Source: a virus
DNA length: 64,000 bases
IMG/VR virus record: IMGVR_UViG_3300044957_000346
Span: 10,429 to 74,428 of that record
Direction: 5' to 3' (one strand)
Below, in pieces: positions 2,670 through 38,133 of the stretch (position 1 is the stretch's first letter; each line of letters starts with the position of its first letter). The notes under the pieces are model-generated. The model did not search any database. It worked only from the letters and a program-made list of their open reading frames with translations, and was not told the DNA's origin. The position numbers and the translations under genes were made by a program.

Positions 2670-2942
2670 ATGAGTTTCTTTAGCGAAGAAAGTTCCTCTT
2701 CCGTCAAAAATCATTCTTTGTGGTCGGAAAAATATCGTCCGGATGTATTGGATGGTTATATCTGTGATAGCAATCTAAAAAGCATTATTACAGATTTTAT
2801 CAATCGTAAAGACATTCCGCATATATTGTTACATGGTAATGCTGGTACTGGAAAATGTTTAGATTATGATGAATTTATAGATGTAGAAATGGAAGTAACA
2901 AACGATGAATATGAAATTTTAAAAAAATATGAAATAAATTGA
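2670..2942 (+). CDS. gp44: Clamp loader gp44/RFC piece 1: 62-aa extein (LWSEKYRP...GNAGTGK) + 28-aa split-intein N-part
   Basis: RFC box WxEKYRP, Walker A ending GK, then intein block A CLDYDEFIDV and TGA at 2940-2942. Confidence 0.9.
   Translation: MSFFSEESSSSVKNHSLWSEKYRPDVLDGYICDSNLKSIITDFINRKDIPHILLHGNAGTGKCLDYDEFIDVEMEVTNDEYEILKKYEIN
2856..2939 (+). mobile_element. Atypically short split-intein N-fragment (IntN1, 28 aa)
   Basis: Begins with Cys right after Walker A Lys; acidic; followed by a stop. Confidence 0.85.
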
Positions 2943-2957
2943 AATCGTGATACTGTG

Positions 2958-3003
2958 TATAGTTATGCAGGATTTGGACTTTTCCGATACCGGCATAACT
3001 ATA
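2958..3003 (+). promoter_or_regulatory. RNA hairpin just upstream of the endonuclease start
   Basis: TATAGTTATGC (2958-2968) is the exact reverse complement of GCATAACTATA (2993-3003); extra inner pairing; ends 4 nt before ATG 3008. Confidence 0.7.
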
Positions 3004-3007
3004 AATT

Positions 3008-3977
3008 ATGAAAATAATATATAAACAATATAAAATTTTATCGGATGTTAAAAATTATAAAGAATTAGAAAATTTTATTATATCAAATCATTTGTTGAAA
3101 AATTTCAAATCGTTCGATGTAAAATTTATTAATATTATTAATGTGGAAATTAACAAGACCGATAAAGTCTCTTTTAAAATATTTAAAAACAATTTTATTA
3201 AAAAATGGGTTAATTGTGGTACTTTTTTAAAAACTGAATATTGGACTCAGAGAGGTTGGACAATGGATGAAGCCATTGAAAATATTAAAAAATCCAATCT
3301 AATTATTCAAAAAAATCAAATTTAAAAAATAAACCGTGAGCACTTAATACTAGAATTGAATTTTGGTTAAAAAAAGGATATTCACAATCGGAAGCGGTTG
3401 AAAAATTGAGAGAAAGACAGTCGTGTTTTTCCAGAAATAAATTAATAAAGAAGTATGGCGAAGAAATTGGAAACAGAATAGTTGATGAACGAAATAAAAA
3501 ATGGGTTGATTCTTTGAAAAAGAATAATGATTGGGATGCATTATCAATTAAAAAAGGAAATAATGGTTTGAATAAATATAAAAGTCTAAATGATATGATC
3601 TCAGTATATGGAGAATTGGAAGGTAGAATAATATTTTCGTTAAGATATTGGGGGAAAAAAATTTCAACCGTCGAAGAATTTAATGAAATAGACTTATTTA
3701 AAAAAAGAGAACGAACATCATTATTTTACAATAAAAATTACAGATTTAAAATATTATCCAAACAAAATTTCAGTTGTGGGGAATGTGGGGAATGTGGGAT
3801 TTCAAATAAAGAACGTTTATTTCATCTACATCATATAGATTTCGATAAAAAAATGATAAAATTGACAACTTGATCTTTTTATGTCATAATTGTCATGCAA
3901 AAACTACAAATGCGAAGTTAGAAAAAAGAAAATGCTTAATAGAAAAGTTTAAAAAATTGAATGAAAAATACACTTAA
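3008..3977 (+). pseudogene. Free-standing HNH homing endonuclease, frameshifted
   Basis: Pieces join to CGEC...HLHHIDFDKK/NDKIDNLIFLCHNCHAK; repeated EYW/EFW..GxxxxEA motifs; frameshifts in A-runs; stop 3975-3977 overlaps the next ORF. Confidence 0.75.
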
Positions 3978-4830
3978 AAAGTTTCGTATTCCAATTGGGG
4001 AACTGTTCACATTTTTCAATTTAAATGGAAATGATTATGACATTCCAAAGAAAATTTCCAGATTATTAAAAATAAAAACAGCTGACGGAAAATATACCGA
4101 CATATTATATTTAATCAAAAAGTTTGGTAAAATTTATAATTATAAATTGGAAAATGGTATTGAAATAACTTGTGATGAAAACCATTTAGTTAAATCAAAC
4201 GGAAAATTTACTTTTATAAAAGACTGTACTTTGGTCGATACTATAAATGGGTCGTATAAAATTATAAATTCAACCTATCTAAAAGATGGTGATGTATATG
4301 ATATGTCATTAAACGATCCTCATGAATATATTACTTCATCTGGAATTATTTGTCATAATACAACCTTAGCTAAGATTATTGTAAAAAATATTCCATGTGA
4401 TTGTGTTTATATTAATGCTAGTGATACTAATGGTATTGAGATGGTAAGAACTAAGATTAAGGGATTTGCTGGATCCGCAGGTTTCCAACCATTAAAAGTG
4501 ATTATATTAGATGAATGTTTGGATGAAAATACTTTTGTTTATGTATTGAGAAAAGGTATTGAAACCAAAGTAAAAATAAAAGATGTCAATGAGAATGAAG
4601 ATTTGATAAAATCTTTCAATATTAAACAATCTAAAATAGAATGGAGAACATTTTATTTGTGGGACAAAGGTGAACAAGAATGTGTGAGAATTGAATTGGA
4701 AAACGGAGAATCCGTAATTTGTACATTAGATCATAAATGGTATGTTTTAAACGATAAAAACGAACCAATAAAAGTAAAAACAAAAGAATTAGTAGAAGGT
4801 AAATATGATTGCATTTTGTCTCCAGAATAA
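3961..4830 (+). CDS. gp44: Clamp loader piece 2: IntC1 (133 aa) + 52-aa extein (TTLAK...KVIILDE) + IntN2 (104 aa)
   Basis: ITCDENH block B, VYDMSL...IICHN|TT; INASD RFC motif; Walker B IILDE|CLDENT block A; CTLDHKW block B; stop. Confidence 0.9.
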   Translation: MKNTLKKFRIPIGELFTFFNLNGNDYDIPKKISRLLKIKTADGKYTDILYLIKKFGKIYNYKLENGIEITCDENHLVKSNGKFTFIKDCTLVDTINGSYKIINSTYLKDGDVYDMSLNDPHEYITSSGIICHNTTLAKIIVKNIPCDCVYINASDTNGIEMVRTKIKGFAGSAGFQPLKVIILDECLDENTFVYVLRKGIETKVKIKDVNENEDLIKSFNIKQSKIEWRTFYLWDKGEQECVRIELENGESVICTLDHKWYVLNDKNEPIKVKTKELVEGKYDCILSPE

Positions 4831-4895
4831 AATTATTTGTCTCTTGACTCACAAATTTCATATATGTTATATAATAAAAAAGTAATTTAATTTAT

Positions 4896-5480
4896 ATGAA
4901 ATTGAACGATATAATGATTTTTGATATAAAAAGTGAAACGCCAATAATATTTGATTTAGGTGGACATAAGGGAGATTGGGTTCAGATAGCTTTAACTAAG
5001 TATCCGAAATCGATCATTTATGTATTTGAACCCATAAAACTATATTATGATTTAATTTGTGATCGATTTAAATCTATAAATAATGTTAAAGTTTTTAACT
5101 TTGCTATTTCGGACAAAACATATGAAACTGAGATTTCTATAGAAGGAGATCGATCATCTATTCATTTTGATTCAAAAACAATAGAGAAAGAGTGTATTAA
5201 AGTAAAGAATATCAGAGAATTTTTATTTGAAGAACAAATATTTTTTGTGGATTTAATAAAAATTAACATAGAGGGTGAAGAGTATAATTTATTAGAATAC
5301 TTGATGAACACCCCTGAATTATGCGTTTTTCAAAACTATGTAGTTCAGTTTCATAGAAACATTGAAAATCATATTTCTAGACGAAATTTTATATTAAACA
5401 ACATTAAAAAATTCTACGATATAATATTTTCTGTAGATTTTGTTTGGGAAGGTTGGTCTATTAAAAAAATTAAAAAATAA
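4896..5480 (+). CDS. FkbM-family methyltransferase lying inside the fractured clamp-loader locus
   Basis: FDLGGHKG, YVFEP, FNFAISD, DLIKINIEGEEY motifs. Confidence 0.85.
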   Translation: MKLNDIMIFDIKSETPIIFDLGGHKGDWVQIALTKYPKSIIYVFEPIKLYYDLICDRFKSINNVKVFNFAISDKTYETEISIEGDRSSIHFDSKTIEKECIKVKNIREFLFEEQIFFVDLIKINIEGEEYNLLEYLMNTPELCVFQNYVVQFHRNIENHISRRNFILNNIKKFYDIIFSVDFVWEGWSIKKIKK

Positions 5481-6509
5481 ATGCTAAGTCAACTAGAGAA
5501 AAATTAAAAAATGCAGCAATAAATCAAGGATTGGGAAAATATAAAATATATGAACGAGAAAATTATTGTGATACGGAAATTAAAAGTTTAGTAGAAAAGT
5601 ATAAAAATTTGCCAAAATATACCGATATTTTTAATTCAACTATAACATATAAATCGGAACATATTTGGAGAAACTCTATAATAAGAAAAATGGATATTTC
5701 TTCGTGTAATTTATTTTTCTATCTTTTAGAAGATAATATTCCCGATTGTAAGTATTGTAATATTAAATTATCAATTGATTCATATTCATATGGTGGGAAG
5801 GGTTTTTCATTTAAAGGATTTAAAAAATATTGTCTAATTTGTACAAATAATCAAAACTATAAAAGATATAAACATTCTAAAGAATCAGTTTTAAAATTTA
5901 AAATTTCAAAATTAAAATGGACAAATTCAAAATCAGGAAAGTTATTTTATAAAAAACTCGGAAAACAAAATAGTATAGGTTTAAAAAAAATATTTTCAAA
6001 CAGATCAGGGGCGTAATCAAATTGAAAAAACATCATTAAAACAATCAAAAATTTTAAAAGAAAAAATATTAAAGGGAGAATTTCATCCAAATATAACAAA
6101 CAGTTGGACAAATTGGAATGCTATAATTACATTAGAAAATAAAATATATAAGTTTAGAAGTTCATGGGAAGCTTCATTTTTTGTTAGTAACACTCATTGT
6201 AAATATGAGTATATTAGGATACCATATATTGATAAACATGACAAAACTAAAACTTATATTGCGGATTTTTATGATGAAAAAAACAAAATTTTATATGAAC
6301 TAAAACCTAGATCCGTATTTAAAAAAGAAGTAGTAAAAATAAATCAAGTTATAGAATATTGCATAAAAAATGAAATAAAATTTATATGGTTGAATGAAAA
6401 CAACATTCTAAATCATATTGACAAAAAAGATTTCTCGGATGATAATCTAAATCAATACAATAAAATGTTAGAGGGTATTTATGGTAAAAATAAAAATAAA
6501 ATCAATTAA
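5474..6509 (+). pseudogene. Free-standing PD-(D/E)xK (TnsA-N-like) endonuclease with CxxC pairs, frameshifted
   Basis: CKYC/CLIC in 5531-6016; after a shift in the A8 run near 5983-5990 reads FRSSWEA...YIADFYD...LYELKP; stop 6507-6509 overlaps the IntC2 start. Confidence 0.7.
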
Positions 6510-7215
6510 AAAATTGGAAGAAAAAATGCATGTATATGATTTATCAGTGGATGGAAATCATAACTTTTTCATAGGAAACAAACCAACTTTAACATCAAAT
6601 TGTGATTTTTTAACGACTGAAGCTCAGGCATCTCTTCGTAATTTGATGGAAACATATAGTCAAACTACGAGGTTTATTTTGACTTGTAATTATGTTGAGA
6701 AGATCATCAAGCCTCTTATTAGTCGTTGTCAAGTGTTTGATATTGAACCGCCTACTCCAAAGAATGTAGCGATTCATATCAAGAATATCTTGGATAAAGA
6801 GAATATTAAGTACGAATTGCCATCTCTTAAGAACGTATTGGATGATTTTTATCCAGATGTACGGAAGATTATCAACTTCGTACAACAGAATAGCACTAGT
6901 GGTACATTGAAGATTGTCAAAAATCAAAATGCAAGTTTTGATCTTAAAAACAAAATTATTGAACTTCTGAAGGGTTCAAAAACAAACTCAAGTGCGTTTA
7001 ATGATATTCGACAACTTGTAAATGACGCGGGTGCAAAAGTATATGACGAACTGTATAGTGAATTGTATGTCAGAACAAAAGAATATGCTCCTAATAAAGA
7101 AACTTCAGTAATTATTGATATAGCAGAACATACTTATCAAAGTAGCATGGTTGTGGATAAAGAAATTACGTTCATGGCTTGTATTGCTAAATTGATAAAA
7201 ACAATCGGTAAATGA
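6481..7215 (+). CDS. gp44: Clamp loader piece 3: IntC2 (40 aa) + 204-aa extein
   Basis: MVKIKIKSIKK...VYDLSVDGNHNFF...TSN|CDFLTTEAQASLR, FILTCNY, LISRC; GAGGGT SD upstream. Confidence 0.9.
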   Translation: MVKIKIKSIKKLEEKMHVYDLSVDGNHNFFIGNKPTLTSNCDFLTTEAQASLRNLMETYSQTTRFILTCNYVEKIIKPLISRCQVFDIEPPTPKNVAIHIKNILDKENIKYELPSLKNVLDDFYPDVRKIINFVQQNSTSGTLKIVKNQNASFDLKNKIIELLKGSKTNSSAFNDIRQLVNDAGAKVYDELYSELYVRTKEYAPNKETSVIIDIAEHTYQSSMVVDKEITFMACIAKLIKTIGK

Positions 7216-8662: not shown

Positions 8663-9586
8663 ATGAATAAAACTGATAAAATTTATATTGCGGGCCATAA
8701 TGGACTAGTTGGATCTTCTATTGTGAGATTATTGAAAAAATTGGGATACAATAATCTATTAACCGCAGACTTTAGTGATCTTGATTTAAGGAATCAATTG
8801 CAAGTTAACAATTGGTTTGTTAAAAACAAACCTGATTATGTATTTCTTGCTGCTGCTAAAGTTGGAGGTATATCTTATAATAAAACATATCCAGCAGATT
8901 TTATATATGATAACTTAATGATTCAAACCAATGTTATACATGCGAGTTATCTAAATAATGTAAAGAAGTTATTGTTTCTTGGTAGCAGTTGTATTTATCC
9001 AAAAGAAAATCCATTACCTATCAATGAAAATAGATTATTAACCGGACCATTAGAACCAACTAATGAATCGTATGCATTGGCAAAAATAACAGGGTTGAAG
9101 ATGACGCAATATTATAGGGACCAATATGGATGTAATTTTATATCTGTTATGCCTTGCAATTTATATGGTCCAAATGATTGTTTTGATGTGAATAAATGTC
9201 ATGTCATACCCGCGTTAATTACAAAGTTTCATAATGCCAAGATCAATAAATTGAATGATATTGTAATGTGGGGTACTGGTGCTGCAAAACGAGAATTTTT
9301 GTATGTAGACGATTTGGCAGAAGCTTTGTATTTTTTAATGAAAAACTATAATGACCGTAATCATATTAATGTCGGATCTGGATACGAAGTAGGAATGAAA
9401 GAATTGTTTACTATGATATCTGAATTGGTTGGATACACCGGTGAGTTAGTATTTGATACATCTAAACCAGACGGAACTATATCCAAGATGATTGATAATA
9501 CCAAAATCAAAGATTTAGGGTGGTCGCCAAAAATTCAATTGAACGATGGATTGAGAGAAACTTACGATTGGTATATAAATAATTAA
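8663..9586 (+). CDS. fcl: GDP-L-fucose synthase (WcaG/ColC-type epimerase-reductase)
   Basis: AGHNGLVGS, AAAKVGGI, LGSSCIYP, YALAK, PCNLYGP. Confidence 0.93.
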   Translation: MNKTDKIYIAGHNGLVGSSIVRLLKKLGYNNLLTADFSDLDLRNQLQVNNWFVKNKPDYVFLAAAKVGGISYNKTYPADFIYDNLMIQTNVIHASYLNNVKKLLFLGSSCIYPKENPLPINENRLLTGPLEPTNESYALAKITGLKMTQYYRDQYGCNFISVMPCNLYGPNDCFDVNKCHVIPALITKFHNAKINKLNDIVMWGTGAAKREFLYVDDLAEALYFLMKNYNDRNHINVGSGYEVGMKELFTMISELVGYTGELVFDTSKPDGTISKMIDNTKIKDLGWSPKIQLNDGLRETYDWYINN

Positions 9587-15816: not shown

Positions 15817-16536
15817 ATGATTACTATTGTTTCCCCCATATATTTAGGTCAACAACATAGAGTTGAATATTATCAAAAGTTTATTAATTCGTGTAAAAAT
15901 CAAAACAATTTTAATAAAATACAATTTATTTTTTTCTATGAAAATACTATAGTAGATTATAATTTAATTTACGAATTAAAATCATACAATAACATTGATT
16001 TACATATAAATTCATACGACTTTAAAACTTTCCTAAATCAGTATAATTGTTTGAATTATTGTTTTGAACATCTAAAATTAGATCATGTTATATATCTTGA
16101 AGACGATGTAGAAACATCCAATGATTTATACGATATAACAAATTTTTATATAAATTCCGAACATTATCATGATAATAATATATTTTGTTATCTAAATAAA
16201 GATAATTTGATAGATGATGTTTTGACTAAATCCGATCTAATCCAAGTCAAACCATTCATGCGTGGAAATATGGGTTACTTTACACCGTGGGGATTTTTAG
16301 CGACAAAATATATGTGGAATAATGCTTTAAAATATTGGAATAAGAAAAGATCATTTGATTTCGAAATTGTAGAAATATTTAAAAATACTCATCAAATTAT
16401 ATCACCTCAAGAGTCTAGAGTAAATCATATTGGAGAAATAGGTGCGAGTTATAACAAGGCGTTATTTGAATCACACAACTTTAATACTTATAAGGTAAAA
16501 CAATATCAAAATCCAATAATTTATACTTATGTATGA
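15817..16536 (+). CDS. Putative GT-A glycosyltransferase
   Basis: IYLEDD, FTPWG, SRVNHIG..G. Confidence 0.55.
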   Translation: MITIVSPIYLGQQHRVEYYQKFINSCKNQNNFNKIQFIFFYENTIVDYNLIYELKSYNNIDLHINSYDFKTFLNQYNCLNYCFEHLKLDHVIYLEDDVETSNDLYDITNFYINSEHYHDNNIFCYLNKDNLIDDVLTKSDLIQVKPFMRGNMGYFTPWGFLATKYMWNNALKYWNKKRSFDFEIVEIFKNTHQIISPQESRVNHIGEIGASYNKALFESHNFNTYKVKQYQNPIIYTYV

Positions 16537-17629
16537 CTATATAATAGTAGGATCTGGGTTATTTGGATCTACATTTGCAAACTTAGTACATTCATGTGGA
16601 AAATCGTGTCTTGTTTTGGAAAAAAGAAATCACATAGGCGGTAACATTTATACTGAAAAAAAAGATGGTATTAATATACACATGTATGGTCCACATATAT
16701 TTCATACATCAAATGAAAAAATTTGGAAATACATCAATAAATTTTCTAAATTTAATAATTTTTTAAATAGACCCAAAGTAAAATATAAGAATAATATATA
16801 TTCATTTCCTATTAATTTATTAACTTTATATCAGTTATGGGGAGTTATCACTCCAGAACAAGCAAAGAATAAATTAAATAGTGTTAAACTTAAAATAAAA
16901 AATCCTAGTAATCTAGAAGAGTGGATTTTAAATCAAGTTGGAGAAGAAATATATGAGACATTCATATACGGTTATACTAAAAAACAATGGGGCAAAGAAC
17001 CTTGTGAATTACCGAGTTCAATTGTTAAAAGATTGCCCATACGATTAGATTTTAATGATGGATATTATAATAATGAAGACATTTATCAAGGAATTCCAAT
17101 AGATGGATATACCGTTATTATAAATAATATGTTAAAAGATATTCAGGTGGAATTAAATGAAGATTTTAATAAAAACAAAGCTTATTGGCTTCCAAAAGCA
17201 AAACATATTGTCTATACAGGAGCCATTGATCAATTATTTGATTATAAATTGGGAGTACTTGAATATAGAAGTCTTAAATTTGTACACGAAAAATTAAAAA
17301 TTGGAGATTTTCAAGGAAATGCAATAGTTAATTATACGGAATATCAAGTTCCGTATACTAGAATTATAGAACATAAACATTTTGAAAATGTAAATGTAGA
17401 ACATACAATAATAACAAAAGAATTTCCTGAAAAATGGACTATTGGTAAAGAAAGTTACTATCCTTTGAACAATAGTCAAAATGATGAATTGTATAAAAAA
17501 TATATAGAATTGGCAAAAAAAGAATATCCTAATTTTATATTTGGTGGCAGATTAGCATCGTATAAATATTTTGACATGCATCAAGTTATAGGGCAAGCTA
17601 TGCACAAAGCTCAAGAACAATTTTGTTAA
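16529..17629 (+). CDS. glf: UDP-galactopyranose mutase
   Basis: VGSGLFG, HIGGN, YGPHIFHT, YT.KQWG, GRLA.YKYFDMHQ. Confidence 0.95.
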   Translation: MYDYIIVGSGLFGSTFANLVHSCGKSCLVLEKRNHIGGNIYTEKKDGINIHMYGPHIFHTSNEKIWKYINKFSKFNNFLNRPKVKYKNNIYSFPINLLTLYQLWGVITPEQAKNKLNSVKLKIKNPSNLEEWILNQVGEEIYETFIYGYTKKQWGKEPCELPSSIVKRLPIRLDFNDGYYNNEDIYQGIPIDGYTVIINNMLKDIQVELNEDFNKNKAYWLPKAKHIVYTGAIDQLFDYKLGVLEYRSLKFVHEKLKIGDFQGNAIVNYTEYQVPYTRIIEHKHFENVNVEHTIITKEFPEKWTIGKESYYPLNNSQNDELYKKYIELAKKEYPNFIFGGRLASYKYFDMHQVIGQAMHKAQEQFC

Positions 17630-21176: not shown

Positions 21177-22997
21177 ATGTCGGATTTAAAAAATTTAGAT
21201 AAATTACCGGGTGGTGTAGGCGATGGTGTAGATGCCTCAAAATTCAATCCTATACAACTTTCTTTAGGAATACAAATTGAAATGGAGCATACAAATGATC
21301 CTGAAATAGCACAAGAAATCGCGTGCGATCATTTATATGAAGATCCCGCTTATTATACAAAATTGGTAAAAGCTGGTTTAGCCAAAGAATTTCAACCGTC
21401 ACACAACAGCGGTCTCGGTGATCCTGATTATTCAGCTAACGATGCTTCTAGAGTAGGCATCGACGGTTTAAAGAAAGGAAATATGGGTGGTAAAATTGGT
21501 AATACATCTAATGGTCAAGTTGACGGAAGAAATAGTGAACCTATTGTAAATAAAACCGTTGATATTGAATTAGACGAAAAGAAAGGTAAAAAGAAACCAA
21601 AACCAACCAATCCAACTTTATGGGCAAGAGCTAAAGCTGCTGCAAGAGCCAAATTTGATGTATATCCGTGCGTACCACTTGATAGTAAAGCTCTTACAAA
21701 AAATGGATGGAAAACATATGAAGAATTAACTATAGGCGAATTGATATTGACTTATAATATTAATAAAGATGAATTGGAATGGAAACCAATATTAAATCTT
21801 AATTTTTTTGAAAATGCAGAGTTAGTAAGAATGTATAAACCTACAGGTTTTTCAATAAAGTGTACACCTAATCATAAGTGGGTTGTACAAAGAGGAAATG
21901 ATTATTCTATTGTAGAATTGATAGAAACAAAAGATTTACCTAAAAGAGCTAGAATAATAGTATGTGCAGAGTTAAAAAATAATGACAAAATATTATTAGA
22001 AAATTTTTCTAAAACCGATAATTGGACTGAAAATATCATTAATATGAGTTCTGAACAAAGAAAGTCGTTTTTAGCAGCATCTATAATATATGATGGGTGG
22101 GATAAGGGATCTTCTTCAAAAATAGAAGGTCGTCATACTTTTGGATTTGTACAAAAAAATTCAGATCATTTGGATGCTGGTTTATTGGCAGCGTATTTAA
22201 GTGGATATTATGTATCTGTATGTGATAGAGAATCTATAACGTCTGCAAATTTTATAAGAAACAAAAAATTTCATTGTGTTCAAAATATAAAGTTTGAGAA
22301 AACAGAAAATGAGGATGTTTGGTGTCCGACTACCGAAAATAATACCTGGATAATGTACCAAAACGGATTAATTACAATTACAGGCAATTCGGCTTATGCT
22401 AATGGATGGGCCGCTAAGTGGTATAAAAAACACGGTGGTGGCTGGAGAATGAGTGAAGATGCCGAATCTAGTCCAGCCGCAGCTTATGATGGACCATTTC
22501 CATCACAAGTATCTCCAGATGGACAAGGCACTTATGGAAGTGGATATGATTTTGTAGGTTTTGCGGAAAATAAAGGTACAATTATGAAAAAAGAACAACT
22601 TAAAGAAGCTATCAAAAAATTAGTAAAACAAACATTGATTGAACAAGAACAAGACGATGTTGATGTAGCAGCCGAAGATGAAACTGTTACTATTACATTG
22701 GACAAACAACTTGCACAAAAATTGCATGATTTATTAATGACTCAACTTCAACCAGAAACTCCAGCAGGTCCAGAAGATGCAAACGATGTTGTGACTGCAG
22801 AAGATGACAAAGAAACAGTTGCTGCAAATATGAGTAGCGACCGACTACCACCAGGAGCTCTTCATAAACAACTTGGAGTTCCATCTGGAGAAAAAATACC
22901 AGCTGGTAAATTAGCAGATGCTGCTAATAAAGGCGGTAAACTTGGTAAGAGAGACAGATTAGCTCAAACATTGAGTAAGATTGCCAAGAAAAAGTAA
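21177..22997 (+). CDS. Modular putative virion protein (DUF5661-like N-terminus) containing an intein
   Basis: GIQIEMEHT...DHL.EDP.YY.KL; KFDVYP|intein|SAYANGW..KWYK..GGGW; C-terminal PGALHKQLGVP.GEKIP motif. Confidence 0.75.
   Translation: MSDLKNLDKLPGGVGDGVDASKFNPIQLSLGIQIEMEHTNDPEIAQEIACDHLYEDPAYYTKLVKAGLAKEFQPSHNSGLGDPDYSANDASRVGIDGLKKGNMGGKIGNTSNGQVDGRNSEPIVNKTVDIELDEKKGKKKPKPTNPTLWARAKAAARAKFDVYPCVPLDSKALTKNGWKTYEELTIGELILTYNINKDELEWKPILNLNFFENAELVRMYKPTGFSIKCTPNHKWVVQRGNDYSIVELIETKDLPKRARIIVCAELKNNDKILLENFSKTDNWTENIINMSSEQRKSFLAASIIYDGWDKGSSSKIEGRHTFGFVQKNSDHLDAGLLAAYLSGYYVSVCDRESITSANFIRNKKFHCVQNIKFEKTENEDVWCPTTENNTWIMYQNGLITITGNSAYANGWAAKWYKKHGGGWRMSEDAESSPAAAYDGPFPSQVSPDGQGTYGSGYDFVGFAENKGTIMKKEQLKEAIKKLVKQTLIEQEQDDVDVAAEDETVTITLDKQLAQKLHDLLMTQLQPETPAGPEDANDVVTAEDDKETVAANMSSDRLPPGALHKQLGVPSGEKIPAGKLADAANKGGKLGKRDRLAQTLSKIAKKK
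21669..22388 (+). mobile_element. Contiguous intein (240 aa) with degenerate LAGLIDADG-like segment
   Basis: CVPLDSKALTKNGWK block A, CTPNHKW block B, FLAASIIYDG, VWCPTTENNTW...ITGN|S. Confidence 0.9.
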
Positions 22998-27297: not shown

Positions 27298-29736
27298 TTA
27301 TCTTATTCCTTTTCTTTTTTTGTAATCGTCTAACGCGGCATTAAGTGCTTCCTGTGCTAACACACTACAGTGAATTTTAACTGGTGGAAGTCCACCCAAT
27401 GCTTCTACTATGTTATCATTGCTAAAATTTTTTTCAAGATCTTCTATTGTTCTACCCTTAATAAGTTCGGTTGCCACACTAGAAGCAGCTATAGCACTGC
27501 CACAGTTATGTGACATTGCTCTTAATACAAAGAAACAGTTTGAACCTTCATTTAATTCTAAATCATAAACAATATAATTGTCATTAGATTTTTCCAATCC
27601 TCTTAATTCATTAACATGTGTAATTTCTTTTTTTGATTTTAATGCAATTCCATTATGAATAAATCTTTGAATATCATTAATGCAAGTATCCAATTCATTT
27701 TTTTCAACAAACATCACATCAAAACCAGCAGATGAATAATCTTTTCTTTTTTGTATCATCCATCCTTGATTTTCACGATTTTGCATAAAATGAGGTAAAT
27801 TTTTAGTATAAACTTCAATTACTTTTTTTTGACCATTTACTTTAAAATCAGGATTAAATCTTTTTCCATCTGGTGTGTTTATCCAAAACTTATAATCTCC
27901 TACGTATCTTAAATCTAGATTTTCATTTACAAATTTATTAATAAACTTTTTTTCTAATAAAGTTGGTCTTTTCCACTGATCTTTTTTAATTCCCTCTTGC
28001 CAGTTTTTAACATATTCTGGATTTTTCCACATTTTTTTACAAGAAATGCTTGTTTTAAAACTAGAAATTTCAAGATTTTTTCTTTTGTATTTTTTTTGAT
28101 TCTGAGGCAATTCTTTTTGTTTCATCAATCCAAGATTATTTCTTTTTGAAATTTTTTTTGAATTGATATCTTTTAACCATTGTTGTTTTCTAACATTATT
28201 AATTGAACGGAGTTCTCGTTCTGTCATTTCCAATACTTCCATTCCAATTTCAAAATTTTCTGTTACTAATGGTCTATTATCTGCGCCCCACCAAACATGG
28301 TCTTTAGTGCAAATTATTTTTTTCCTTAATCCAAAATCTAATACACATAAATCATCGGAAGATACTTCTTTTTTAACAATATTTTTAACAGTATTTTTAA
28401 CTACAGAGCTTCCATTCCATGTCCAAATTTGATCACCTATTTTTAAGTTTTTAATGGATGTATATCCGTTTGGAGTAGCAATTGGACTATTACCACCTAA
28501 GCATCCAAATGTCTTGAATCGAGCATCAATAACTTTATTGGTTTGTTCATCGATTCTGAGACTAATCTTCATTATATCACCACAATTTTTAACGACTATT
28601 CCTTCTTCAACATTCAGGGTGATACGTGATAAAACAATATAATTATTATTTTCCTCAACTTGTAATGTATATGTTTGAATTTCTCCAATATATTCTCGTT
28701 TGATTATATTGTGATTATAATGTTTGCATTCATCAAAAAACTCAGTCCATGATGGAAATCTTGTTGATAAAGACTGTGGAATTTTATTTTGTTTGGCATA
28801 AGATCGCCAAAGATTAGCGGTCAACTTACCGTGTTGTTTATATAAATTATTTCCTATTTTGAATAAATCTTCATCCGAATATCCTAACCACTTCGGATTT
28901 TTATTTCTCGGCTTAGAAGCGAATTTATATTTCCATTCATCGGACGTTTTATGATAACAATTATTATTTCCTTTTTGTCTTAGAGATATTAACTTCCTCT
29001 GTTCTTCGGTGGCCAATTTTGAAAAATGATTTGCCAATTCACTTTTGTCATCAAACTTGTTAATGTTTTCCAATAAAATGTCTTTATTAATACATACATC
29101 AAATGTTTTTGGTCTATCCCAATTTGGGTTTGTCAACTTAGTATGATCTGATTTTGGTAATCCTTGCAAATTACTAATACAGTTATTTTGTTTGTTTTCA
29201 TCTATGTGATGTATATCATATCCTATAGTATTATGGTCAGGATTGTGAAATTTATAAATTTCAATGTGTTCTTTCCTATGTTTGGTTTTTCTAATTTCCC
29301 AATATCCATTTTTGATTATTTTTCGTTTGAATGGATAAATAGAATCATCACTTGTTAATAATTTATTTTCAACATATTGTTTTTTAGGACGAGTGAGAAA
29401 TTTATGATCTTCCGTACATGTTATTGTACCGCCATCATTTAATGTCAATTTATATACTTTTTTGACACCAGATACAACTCCTATAGCATTTTTTATTTCA
29501 AATAAATTTGTTTTAGTATTAAAGCTCCAAACAGGGGTTATTTTGTTTACTAAATTTTTAATAGGAGTATGTAAATTACCATCCGCTGTTGCTATTAAAG
29601 TATCACCATCAAAACATGCTGCAGCCCCTACTTCACCTATAGCGTTTGCTTCTTTTATGTCACCCATATTTCTGGGATTCATAAAATGATCCATTACAGT
29701 TTGATTATATAGAGTATAAGATTCATTCATACCCAT
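27298..29736 (-). CDS. iscU: Fe-S cluster scaffold IscU/NifU-N with two inteins (mature about 135 aa)
   Basis: Exteins join to VMDHFMNPRNMG...GAAA-CGDIMKI...FKTFG-CGSAIAASS...GGLPPVKIHCSVLA. Confidence 0.93.
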   Translation of the reverse strand: MGMNESYTLYNQTVMDHFMNPRNMGDIKEANAIGEVGAAACFDGDTLIATADGNLHTPIKNLVNKITPVWSFNTKTNLFEIKNAIGVVSGVKKVYKLTLNDGGTITCTEDHKFLTRPKKQYVENKLLTSDDSIYPFKRKIIKNGYWEIRKTKHRKEHIEIYKFHNPDHNTIGYDIHHIDENKQNNCISNLQGLPKSDHTKLTNPNWDRPKTFDVCINKDILLENINKFDDKSELANHFSKLATEEQRKLISLRQKGNNNCYHKTSDEWKYKFASKPRNKNPKWLGYSDEDLFKIGNNLYKQHGKLTANLWRSYAKQNKIPQSLSTRFPSWTEFFDECKHYNHNIIKREYIGEIQTYTLQVEENNNYIVLSRITLNVEEGIVVKNCGDIMKISLRIDEQTNKVIDARFKTFGCLGGNSPIATPNGYTSIKNLKIGDQIWTWNGSSVVKNTVKNIVKKEVSSDDLCVLDFGLRKKIICTKDHVWWGADNRPLVTENFEIGMEVLEMTERELRSINNVRKQQWLKDINSKKISKRNNLGLMKQKELPQNQKKYKRKNLEISSFKTSISCKKMWKNPEYVKNWQEGIKKDQWKRPTLLEKKFINKFVNENLDLRYVGDYKFWINTPDGKRFNPDFKVNGQKKVIEVYTKNLPHFMQNRENQGWMIQKRKDYSSAGFDVMFVEKNELDTCINDIQRFIHNGIALKSKKEITHVNELRGLEKSNDNYIVYDLELNEGSNCFFVLRAMSHNCGSAIAASSVATELIKGRTIEDLEKNFSNDNIVEALGGLPPVKIHCSVLAQEALNAALDDYKKRKGIR
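27505..28503 (-). mobile_element. IscU intein 2 (333 aa) with PD-(D/E)xK/Vsr-like domain
   Basis: CLGGNSPIATPNG, CTKDH, PT.LE...NPDF...VIEVY, VYDLEL...SHN|C. Confidence 0.9.
28585..29616 (-). mobile_element. IscU intein 1 (344 aa) with HNH domain
   Basis: CFDGDT block A, CTEDHKF block B, IHHIDENKQNNCISNL, TYTLQVE..NNY...VKN|C. Confidence 0.9.
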
Positions 29737-29738
29737 AA

Positions 29739-30845
29739 TTATATTCCTATTTGCTGTAAATCGTGAATTACCATTTTTTCTACAAGTTGTTTAAAATATG
29801 TCTTTGGAATCCAGTTTAATTCATTTCGTGCTTTTGTACTATCTCCGAGTAATAAATCTACTTCTGCGGGCCTGTAGAACTTGTGATTTATTTTAACTAA
29901 TACACTATTTGATGGATCGTATCTATTTGCATCTTTTACGCTAATACTAAATTCTGCATTTTCGGCTTCTCCGTGCCATATTCCATCAATGTCGGCAGCT
30001 TTAAAAGCTTCAAATACAAATTCTTCAATAGTATGAGTTTCATTGCTGGATAGTACATATTCTTTTGGTTCATTTTGATTTAACATTTTCCAAATACCGT
30101 CAACAAAATCTTCGGCATCACTCCAATCTCTGCTAGCTTTAACATTTCCCAGTTCAATACTGTCAAACGGTTTACCTTCTAAAAGCGCTTTTTTAATTCT
30201 AGCTACGCCCTTAGTGATTTTACGAGTTACAAACTCTTCACCTCTTCTAGTTCCTTCGTGATTGAATAATAAACCTTGTATTGCAAACAGATTGTAAGAT
30301 TCACGATATACTTTGACCAACTGTCGTGCTGCCGATTTGCTTGCGCCATATGGACTACGAGGTTTATATGGATGTTTTTCATCTTGCGGAACATATTCTA
30401 CGTCGCCGTACTCTTCACTACTTCCAGCATTATAAAATCTACAAGATGGCTTGTATTGTTTAATAGCCTGCAATATATGAATTATACCGCACGTATTACA
30501 TTCCCAGGTTTGTGATGGAAAATCCCAGGAAGATCCAACAAATGATTGCGCTGCTAAGTTTATAAAATAATCTGGCTTTAAATTTTCAACAATATTGTAT
30601 ATACTATGTGCATCGCTTAAATCAAAATTTACAAGATGAAATCTTGGATTGTTTTCTAAATGTACGATGTTGTCGTGGTTTTTGATGCTCAATCTTCTTG
30701 TTCCGCCAAAAATTATGTAATCGGTATTTTTTAGCAAATAATCAACCATGAAGCTACCATCTTGACCAGTCACTCCTGTAACGAATACTGTTTTTTTATC
30801 TTTGTTTAAAAACGAAACTGCATCTTTCACATTATATGTTTGCAT
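29739..30845 (-). CDS. gmd: GDP-mannose 4,6-dehydratase
   Basis: TGVTGQDGS, NLAAQSFV, SPYGASK, FNHE..RRGEEFVTRKI, RPAEV. Confidence 0.95.
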   Translation of the reverse strand: MQTYNVKDAVSFLNKDKKTVFVTGVTGQDGSFMVDYLLKNTDYIIFGGTRRLSIKNHDNIVHLENNPRFHLVNFDLSDAHSIYNIVENLKPDYFINLAAQSFVGSSWDFPSQTWECNTCGIIHILQAIKQYKPSCRFYNAGSSEEYGDVEYVPQDEKHPYKPRSPYGASKSAARQLVKVYRESYNLFAIQGLLFNHEGTRRGEEFVTRKITKGVARIKKALLEGKPFDSIELGNVKASRDWSDAEDFVDGIWKMLNQNEPKEYVLSSNETHTIEEFVFEAFKAADIDGIWHGEAENAEFSISVKDANRYDPSNSVLVKINHKFYRPAEVDLLLGDSTKARNELNWIPKTYFKQLVEKMVIHDLQQIGI

Positions 30846-37002: not shown

Positions 37003-38133
37003 ATGAATACTTGGAAACTTAACGAAAACCACTTCACTTGGTTAGATAGGTTAAAAATTTGCAAGTTTTTTTTAAATACTAAAAATTTTTGGACATATGG
37101 TAAATATGTTAAAAAGTTTGAAGAAGAGATGACAAAATATGTAGGCGTCAAACATGCGTTATTTGTTTCAAGTGGGTCAACGGCCAATACAGTATTAGCA
37201 TATTATTTAGGAACCGTGACGACCAAAAAGAAGATTATATTTCCATCTGTGACTTGGGCAACATCAATTACACCATTTGTTAAGTGCGGATTTGAACCAA
37301 TATTTGTAGATGTGTCATTAAATGATTTATCGGCAAATTTAGATGAAATTGAAACTATACTTCAAAATGACAAAGATATCGCTTTGATATTTGTCACATC
37401 CCTATTGGGTGTATCTCCCGATATTGGTAGATTAAAACAAATAGAAGCTAAGTATGGTGTTAGGGTTATGTTGGATAATTGCGAAAGTACACTTAGTAGT
37501 TATAATGGAAAAAATTTAAGCAGTTATTTCACATCTACTACTAGTACATATTTTGGACATTTGTTACAAAGTGTAGAAGGCGGATTTGTGTTCACCAACG
37601 ATGATTCAGAATACGAAATGTTCAATATGATTCGAAATCATGGTATGTACAGACATTTGGAGCCAAACAGAACCGAAAAGTATAGAAATAAAGATGTAGA
37701 TTCTAGGTTTGATTTTTATACCATTGGAAATAATTTTAGAAATAGTGACATTCACGCATTCATAGGATTATTAGACTTTTCTAGAACCAATAAATATATA
37801 AGTCATAGAAAAGATTGTTATCAACACTTTGTTAAGTGTCTTAATAAAGATAGATACTACACCATTGATTTTAATGATGAAAATATTATGTTTTCGTTGC
37901 CTATAATCTGCAAATCATCGTCTGACCTACAATCAATTAAAGATTATTGTGACAAAAACAATATAGAGTATAGACCGATTGTAGGTGGTAATATTTTGAA
38001 ACAAACCGCATTTAAAAAATATTCGTATAAATCATATGAAAACGTTGACACCATACATCAATGTGGAATTTATATTGGGTTACATTATGGTGTCAACAAA
38101 TCTCAAATAGAAGAGTTTTGTTCTTCTATTTAA
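37003..38133 (+). CDS. PLP-dependent DegT-family enzyme, ColD/E1-type dehydratase
   Basis: VSSGSTAN, DNCE, STYFGHLLQSVEGG with His at the usual Schiff-base Lys position. Confidence 0.75.
   Translation: MNTWKLNENHFTWLDRLKICKFFLNTKNFWTYGKYVKKFEEEMTKYVGVKHALFVSSGSTANTVLAYYLGTVTTKKKIIFPSVTWATSITPFVKCGFEPIFVDVSLNDLSANLDEIETILQNDKDIALIFVTSLLGVSPDIGRLKQIEAKYGVRVMLDNCESTLSSYNGKNLSSYFTSTTSTYFGHLLQSVEGGFVFTNDDSEYEMFNMIRNHGMYRHLEPNRTEKYRNKDVDSRFDFYTIGNNFRNSDIHAFIGLLDFSRTNKYISHRKDCYQHFVKCLNKDRYYTIDFNDENIMFSLPIICKSSSDLQSIKDYCDKNNIEYRPIVGGNILKQTAFKKYSYKSYENVDTIHQCGIYIGLHYGVNKSQIEEFCSSI

Follow-up and report, generated by a model that had tools for sequence, protein, structure and literature searches.

The window analyzed here is a 64,000-nt stretch of the 74,428-bp IMG/VR viral contig IMGVR_UViG_3300044957_000346 (positions 10,429 to 74,428), which represents about 21% of a genome based on CheckV completeness. 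The DNA is AT-rich, with a GC content of 21–36% across the first 12 kb of the window. Near its start lies a gene for a clamp loader of the gp44/RFC type that is distributed over three open reading frames (ORFs) on the + strand, each combining a part of the host protein (exteins E1 to E3) with N-terminal (IntN) or C-terminal (IntC) intein halves. Judged from sequence features, this arrangement very probably encodes one clamp loader as three polypeptides that are joined by two split inteins. The three pieces are as follows.

2670–2942, + strand: piece 1 (90 aa); E1 at 2670–2855 (62 aa) and IntN1 at 2856–2939 (28 aa), closed by a TGA stop.
3961–4830, + strand: piece 2 (289 aa); IntC1 at 3961–4359 (133 aa), E2 at 4360–4515 (52 aa), and IntN2 at 4516–4827 (104 aa).
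6481–7215, + strand: piece 3 (244 aa); IntC2 at 6481–6600 (40 aa) and E3 at 6601–7212 (204 aa).

These ORFs and their junctions agree with those given in an earlier, model-made description of the same DNA (hereafter, the sequence-only reading). Piece 1 reads ...GNAGTGK/CLDY...EIN-TGA (a slash marks a splice junction), and its extein ends in the Walker A motif GNAGTGK. Piece 2 has junctions on both sides of its extein (M...ICHN/TTLAK...VIILDE/CLDE...SPE-TAA), which starts with the Walker A Thr and extends as far as Walker B. Piece 3 (MVKI...LTSN/CDFLT) resumes the host protein at CDFLT. Joined end to end, the exteins (62 + 52 + 204) make a protein of 318 aa, with the hallmarks expected of a clamp loader: Walker A is made up of GNAGTGK and TT across pieces 1 and 2, the Walker B motif VIILDE ends E2, and E3 holds the SRC arginine-finger motif (ISRCQ) together with the lid and collar domains. 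The exteins tile the PHROG 168 profile (clamp loader of DNA polymerase) at positions 4–55, from 56 onward, and at 109–307, the last segment being matched by E3 with an E-value of 4e-36. Profile comparison of the middle ORF pairs E2 with residues 57–110 of T4 gp44 (8uk9_B, E-value 5e-8).

To relate the pieces to an undivided gene, uninterrupted alleles were compared with the window. Six metagenome contigs (L098–L103) encode an uninterrupted 318-aa protein with 85–94% identity to E1, 96–98% to E2, and 83–90% to E3, and their product reads ...GNAGTGK-TTLAK... and ...ILDE-ADFFT... at the two sites in question. Collinearity of their DNA with the window extends into the flanking genes, and the only large insertions correspond to window positions 2856–4359 and 4516–6600. 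Both insertions are exactly in frame relative to the intein-less allele, one between K62 and T in Walker A (GTGK/TT) and the other between E and A (C in the window) in Walker B (ILDE/C). The joined exteins therefore reproduce a known full-length protein and, together with the PHROG 168 tiling, confirm that the three fragments belong to a single 318-aa gp44/RFC protein, as the sequence-only reading had proposed. The sole systematic difference from the empty alleles is the +1 residue of intein 2, which is Cys in intein-bearing alleles only and Ala or Ser in the empty ones; this Cys is the nucleophile required by an intein. Recoding of TGA was also considered and rejected: TGA closes 12 of 42 long frames, and readthrough of the stop at 2940 would meet a TAA after 24 codons.

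Intein 1, at the Walker A site, is divided very unevenly. IntN1 comprises 28 aa, starts with CLDY, and has a net charge of −8, and the first 40 residues of the 133-aa IntC1 carry a charge of +6. The two halves are encoded in separate ORFs 1 kb apart and have the proportions of the short-IntN class (IntN of ~15–37 aa and IntC of >100 aa). Natural inteins with such atypical splits include AceL-TerL, GOS-TerL, VidaL, and PolB16 OarG (PMC13014065, PMC12707363), in which IntN spans 15–37 aa and the break lies at S1 (after β2) or S2 (after α1) (PMC13014065). On its sequence, intein 1 fits this atypically split class. At every locus that splits intein 1, the tail after GTGK is 25–33 aa long. GTGK/C, with its Cys1, is invariant in the N-terminal ORFs of seven split loci and is also found in the contiguous proteins P0004 and P0022. 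At the other end, the terminal HN/T is present in 10 of 10 loci, and H132-N133/T134 is invariant across 14 clusters of middle ORFs. Block B (D72..H75) is likewise invariant in the 14 clusters, with His75 kept and the consensus Thr replaced by Asp (CDENH).

Contiguous versions of intein 1 occur in the relatives P0004 and P0022; L019–L021 and P0022 have a shorter loop. In P0004 (480 aa, from a 2.8-kb Logan contig), IntN1 and IntC1 are fused via a single Cys codon at the position where the window has TGA, 1 kb of DNA, and ATG. This protein is either an ancestral mini-intein or a re-fusion that followed endonuclease loss. An AlphaFold model of P0004, built with a 51-row alignment (the alignment-free version had a predicted local distance difference test score [pLDDT] of 36), reached a pLDDT of ~83–94 over the insert. 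Residues 63–224 superpose on the TFIIB mini-intein 5o9i (Z = 17.6, root-mean-square deviation [rmsd] 2.1 Å, 140 aligned residues) and on VidaL 6vgw (Z = 17.3, rmsd 2.4 Å, 138 aligned residues), followed by NpuDnaB, gp41-1, NrdJ-1, and PolB16. The rest of the model matches RFC (Z = 17.3) and T4 gp44 (3u5z_B, Z = 15.5). A Foldseek comparison of the whole P0004 model with the PDB returned RFC chains only; the intein matches come from a structure search independent of Foldseek. At the sequence level, IntC1 matches the Spl DnaX mini-intein in a PDB profile search (E-value 7e-4), and IntC1 alone gave weak intein matches against the PDB by phmmer (E-value 0.04).

In the P0004 model, the position equivalent to the break lies between residues 90 and 91, after a strand (69–75), an extra helix (78–87), and a further strand (88–90), and ahead of the strand 96–102 and the helix 103–109 (canonical α1-like, PIGELF). 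On this model, the break of intein 1 may be S1-like, and IntN1 would have an additional acidic helix behind strand β2. A complex model of IntC1 and E2 with the N-terminal ORF gave an interface score (ipSAE) of 0.83, compared to 0.00 for the best of three controls; 58 of 80 solved complexes attain the mark of 0.83, as do 2 of 110 mismatched pairs. The runs share at least 70% of their contacts, and the partner pLDDT is at least 53. Modelled contacts connect IntN1 residues 60–90 with IntC1 strands 2–15 and 34–39 and with the catalytic regions 69–76, 111–115, and 123–134. The complex model thus favors binding of IntN1 to IntC1, as a likeness rather than a proof, because solved split-intein complexes exist and part of the model's pass may reflect likeness to them.

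Intein 2, at the Walker B site, has a canonical split of 104 + 40 aa. IntN2 starts with CLDENT and has CTLDH as block B, and IntC2 ends in ...TLTSN/C. The Pfam Intein_splicing family matches both halves (PF14890, E-value 2.8e-12), and IntN2 matches DnaE inteins in a PDB profile search (7qil, E-value 1e-7). Across the 14 middle-ORF clusters, E185/C186 and T255..H258 are invariant, and the C-terminal junction is N/C at all loci (HN/C in 48, SN/C in 16 of 71, and GN/C in 2). Contiguous versions are known from P0049, P0076, and L023. No significant similarity was found between inteins 1 and 2 (best blastp E-value 0.12 over 14 residues). Both pairs have the same charge polarity, acidic in the N-terminal and basic in the C-terminal half, so that charge alone would not keep the two pairs apart. 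Cross-reaction appears unlikely, given that inteins 1 and 2 are unrelated in sequence and have their breaks at different points of the fold, and none would be expected because IntN1 with IntC2 would underfill the HINT fold and IntN2 with IntC1 would overfill it. We infer from these properties that the pairs are orthogonal.

A search for other middle ORFs, suggested by the sequence-only reading, showed that the IntC1-E2-IntN2 architecture recurs in at least 14 protein clusters (47–85% identity), of which P0002 (85% identical) is the closest three-piece middle ORF. We surveyed 81 viral loci that were chosen for carrying intein 2. Both inteins are split in five of them (the window, L013, L014, L016, and L022), and L015, whose contig ends early, is a probable sixth. 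Of the other states, named in the order intein 1 and intein 2, split with contiguous and contiguous with contiguous were each found once, and three loci (L019–L021) are apparently contiguous with split. Intein 2 is split and stands alone in 56 loci (median gap ~934 bp) and is contiguous and alone in six. All combinations of absent, contiguous, and split inteins are represented among the relatives. In L014 and L016 the gaps measure 46–244 nt and lack an endonuclease, showing that the split state outlives the endonuclease. The proposal of two different split inteins around the middle extein was thus upheld by several features: seamless junctions relative to the empty alleles, contiguous relatives, the HINT fold of P0004, invariant splice residues, purifying selection on the intein halves, the complex model of IntN1 with IntC1, and recurrence.

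Sequence divergence differs strongly between the inteins and their host gene. L093 and L094 share the whole intein-1 and homing-endonuclease gene cassette with the window at 85% nucleotide identity, including ~45 and 110 nt of flanking extein, compared to ~66% for the rest of the gene; the synonymous divergence (dS) is 0.57 for IntC1 and saturated for the exteins. L095 shares IntN2 at 86% amino acid identity, and its exteins are 49–67% identical. Based on these sequence comparisons, both inteins are horizontally mobile. The ratio of nonsynonymous to synonymous divergence (dN/dS) is 0.10 for IntC1 and 0.07 for IntN2, versus 0.05–0.09 for the exteins; by this measure, purifying selection on the intein halves is as strong as on the exteins.

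The two gaps between the pieces contain genes of their own and two promoter-like sites, as follows.

3008–3977, + strand: HNH homing-endonuclease pseudogene in gap 1; its last 17 nt are shared with the start of piece 2.
3862–3890, + strand: sigma-70-like promoter match (TTGACA-17-CATAAT, 11/12, with a TG extension), ~70 nt upstream of piece 2.
4884–5485, + strand: FkbM-family methyltransferase insertion in gap 2 (ORF 4896–5480; PF05050, E-value 2.4e-7; PHROG 8156).
5531–6509, + strand: zinc-finger and TnsA-like PD-(D/E)xK homing-endonuclease gene in gap 2, broken (PF08722, PHROG 15427); its last 29 nt are shared with the start of piece 3.
6418–6446, + strand: sigma-70-like promoter match (TTGACA-17-GATAAT, 11/12), ~35 nt upstream of piece 3.

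The HNH gene in gap 1 is homologous over its full length to intact ORFs of 320–325 aa in L093, L094, and L013. Its lesions are −1 shifts in the A-runs at 3287–3292 and 3847–3853, an in-frame TGA at 3337–3339 (TGG in L093), and an in-frame 6-nt duplication. The dN/dS of the HNH pieces relative to L093 is ~0.1, which indicates that these lesions are recent. A +1 shift in the A8 run (5983–5990) divides the gap 2 endonuclease gene into pieces at 5531–6016 and 5985–6509, and ORFs of 297–339 aa stand intact at this place in L013, L019, L022, L024, L029, and L036. Both endonuclease genes are recently dead in the window copy. The sequence-only reading had referred to the free-standing endonuclease layout of fractured phage genes; such genes are indeed present in both gaps, although in the window both are pseudogenes. 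Neither this decay nor the methyltransferase gene of gap 2 had been noted in that reading. At the intein-1 split site, L018 (5995–7017) and L022 (5506–7005) encode a Vsr/REase_MTES_1575-like nuclease (PHROG 22677) and no HNH gene, and a different nuclease at the same site points to endonuclease replacement or to independent invasion of the same loop. The methyltransferase segment (602 bp) lies between IntN2 and the endonuclease gene and, in a DNA comparison, is absent from the collinear relative L095. This segment makes the intein-2 gap of the window (1642 bp) the longest among 70 split loci (median ~934 bp). The promoter matches are the two best in the region and are based on consensus only, and such matches are frequent in AT-rich DNA. 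No terminator-like site was found in the region.

These observations suggest how the locus may have arisen and how it would function. A gp44/RFC-type gene would have been invaded twice by mobile inteins, each of them split by a free-standing homing-endonuclease gene, resulting in translation as E1-IntN1, IntC1-E2-IntN2, and IntC2-E3. The acidic IntN1 would dock on IntC1 and complete an atypically split HINT domain, which would splice GTGK to TTLAK and rebuild Walker A. IntN2 and IntC2 would form a second, unrelated HINT domain of the canonical type, whose splicing of VIILDE to CDFLT would finish Walker B and add the sensor, lid, and collar. The spliced product is predicted to be a 318-residue clamp-loader subunit, essentially the product of the empty allele with the Ala after Walker B replaced by Cys. 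Prior to ligation, no fragment would hold a complete nucleotide site: E1 would stop at the P-loop Lys, E2 would begin with the P-loop Thr and end with the Walker B Glu, and E3 would contribute the sensor, SRC motif, lid, and collar. Both splicing reactions presumably occur in vivo, independently of each other. The sequence-only reading had described the splicing as ordered, a term we do not retain because nothing in the sequence bears on the order of the reactions.

Several points weigh against this interpretation. The block-B position of intein 1 is Asp (D72), not Thr, and intein 2 has Ser, not His, before its terminal Asn, yet 16 of 71 related loci share this SN/C junction. For intein 1, the HINT fold comes from a model of P0004, the IntC1 part of which is ~88% identical, and not from the two fragments of the window. 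Because the contig comprises ~21% of the genome, an intact second copy of the clamp-loader gene may lie outside it. The last point bears on a quite improbable alternative, namely that the gene in three pieces is no longer functional and is being lost, and that the phage uses an intact paralogue in the remaining ~79% of its genome, or the loader of its host. The limited extent of the contig (74 kb, about 21% of the genome by CheckV) leaves room for such a paralogue, and both gap endonuclease genes are already pseudogenes. However, the exteins are close to the intact alleles (dN/dS 0.05–0.09), the intein halves have a dN/dS of 0.07–0.10 with every splice residue intact, and the layout persists in diverged lineages, including endonuclease-free ones. 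The sequence-only reading had itself raised an intact gp44 elsewhere with decaying pieces at this locus; the pieces are under purifying selection rather than decaying, and no second intact clamp-loader copy was found on the 74-kb contig, which covers ~21% of the genome.

We also considered it highly improbable that the intein halves serve merely as non-covalent dimerization modules, with the ATPase working as a three-chain complex and no peptide bond being formed. Tight binding does precede splicing in split inteins, and the complex model sets E1 strand 51–56 beside E2 strand 178–184, like an assembled AAA+ core. Mere association, however, would not need Cys1, the block-B His, the terminal Asn, and the +1 Thr or Cys, all of which are invariant, nor does it account for a +1 Cys that is confined to intein-bearing alleles when the empty ones have Ala or Ser. 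In addition, two HINT domains of ~150 residues in the P-loop as well as Walker B would probably block ATP binding and oligomerization. An assembly or sequencing artefact, in which chimeric joins or erroneous stops mimic the split, has a negligible probability. Three of the four endonuclease lesions are changes of ±1 in poly-A runs, which is a typical class of error, but the splits themselves do not consist of point errors; they are insertions of kilobase size that hold further genes, and L093 and L094 carry the whole intein-1 cassette at 85% nucleotide identity. The identical architecture in independent assemblies of other samples makes an assembly artefact very unlikely. Joining of three polypeptides by two split inteins is the explanation that we favor.

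The RFC of Methanocaldococcus jannaschii carries three cis-inteins. Like the inteins of cellular clamp loaders, those described here target the same two motifs, with several inteins per gene. The cellular inteins, in contrast, are contiguous and splice one polypeptide in cis, whereas both inteins are split here and three chains are involved. Contiguous inteins have been reported at site a of RFC-S (P-loop) and at Walker B of cyanobacterial PolIII γ/τ (Novikova et al., PMC4760082), and the sequence-only reading was correct, with respect to contiguous inteins, in naming Walker A and B as recognized clamp-loader intein sites. Compared to the published atypical split inteins, intein 1 is similar in its 28-aa IntN, its 133-aa IntC, and its Cys1, and the fold of its contiguous relative matches VidaL (Z = 17.3). 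It differs in its host site (the clamp-loader P-loop), in its +1 Thr, and, according to the model, in the extra acidic helix of IntN1, and no significant sequence match was found between intein 1 and the published atypical split inteins.

The closest known genetic organization is that of fractured genes, in which an endonuclease gene stands between split-intein halves (Dassa, London, Stoddard, Schueler-Furman, and Pietrokovski 2009, PMC2677866; gp41, NrdA/NrdJ, IMPDH, DnaE, and ligase). As in those genes, both sites here have the order host-N with IntN, endonuclease gene, and IntC with host-C on one strand, and the phage metagenome setting, the charge-complementary fragments, and a model in which an endonuclease invades a mini-intein are shared as well. 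All 26 published fractured loci are two-piece, and the clamp loader is in none of them (PMC2677866). Two fractures in one gene, which result in an internal IntC-extein-IntN polypeptide, set this locus apart. The nucleases also differ, being HNH and TnsA-like here and GIY-YIG or Vsr-like in the published loci (L018 and L022 have the Vsr/MTES_1575-like type at site 1), and unlike in the published loci, both nucleases are dead and one gap has gained a methyltransferase gene. Engineered tandem trans-splicing with two orthogonal split inteins has been used for three-segment labelling (Humberg et al. 2025, PMC12707363), and there too the two outer fragments are joined by ligation to a middle IntC(a)-segment-IntN(b). 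The engineered pair was drawn from different sources, whereas the pair described here is natural, comes from one locus, and is kept by selection in several phage lineages. We found no natural three-piece or doubly split gene in the literature searched, a scope that leaves out most subscription journals. The principle is a known one and not new; what is new, within that literature, is the natural three-fragment layout.

Three-segment protein assembly now requires two orthogonal split inteins that come from unrelated sources and are tested for cross-reactivity (PMC12707363). The locus would offer a natural, co-expressed pair for this purpose, consisting of a canonical intein and an atypical one whose 28-aa IntN is short enough for peptide synthesis. 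The pair has been selected on one protein, and many sequence variants exist across phage lineages. Split inteins are central engineering tools, and the locus is relevant to protein engineers as well as to intein biologists: an essential replication ATPase can apparently tolerate being encoded in three pieces, and the empty, contiguous, singly split, and doubly split alleles that coexist among the relatives document the life cycle of intein and homing endonuclease stage by stage.

The phage is unusually intein-rich. A short way upstream of the window on the same contig, a family-B DNA polymerase is also encoded in two ORFs (L007:1-2734 = G000:C1:3577-6310). The first ends in ...VIYVDTDS followed by an IntN of ~100 aa (block B TEDH), and the second, ~46 nt downstream, opens with an IntC of ~42 aa that ends in DILVHN/SCF. 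This is a canonical split, and its gap has no endonuclease. Taking the polymerase split together with the two clamp-loader splits, the replisome would need at least three trans-splicing events. At window positions 27298–29736 on the − strand, an 811-aa NifU-like protein contains an intein with an HNH endonuclease domain (residues 50–367) and a second Hint-domain match at residues 411–459. A 606-aa protein with an N-terminal DUF5661 domain (21177–22997, + strand) contains a contiguous intein at approximately residues 177–399.

A possible reason for the retention of the double split, which we put forward tentatively and regard as unlikely, is that it is more than debris of selfish elements and that replisome assembly is subject to a post-translational checkpoint in the form of obligatory tandem trans-splicing. 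Such a checkpoint would comprise the two clamp-loader events and a third in the split family-B DNA polymerase, and it could sense fragment stoichiometry, timing, or redox state via the Cys nucleophiles. The persistence of L014 and L016 after the loss of both endonuclease genes, together with the strong purifying selection on the intein halves, would allow this explanation.

Among the other genes near the locus, the ORF at 1926–2663 (245 aa) adjoins the clamp loader upstream, where T4 has gene 45, and its synteny holds in the empty-allele loci. Its sole PHROG match is 12062 (function unknown), and a PDB sequence search gave no match. By its position only, it may be a divergent sliding clamp, and we do not call it a clamp here. 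The clamp-loader extein has its nearest counterparts in uncultured mega-, jumbo, and T4-like phages, with a top match of 39% to a 484-kb uncultured phage. Sugar-nucleotide genes are abundant in the window and include, based on Pfam, GDP-mannose 4,6-dehydratase, UDP-galactopyranose mutase, and a DegT-type aminotransferase (8663–9586, 16529–17629, 29739–30845, and 37003–38133, the first of which is a candidate epimerase-like ORF). Several putative glycosyltransferases are also found in the window, and the sugar-gene set suggests modification of virion or host-surface glycans.

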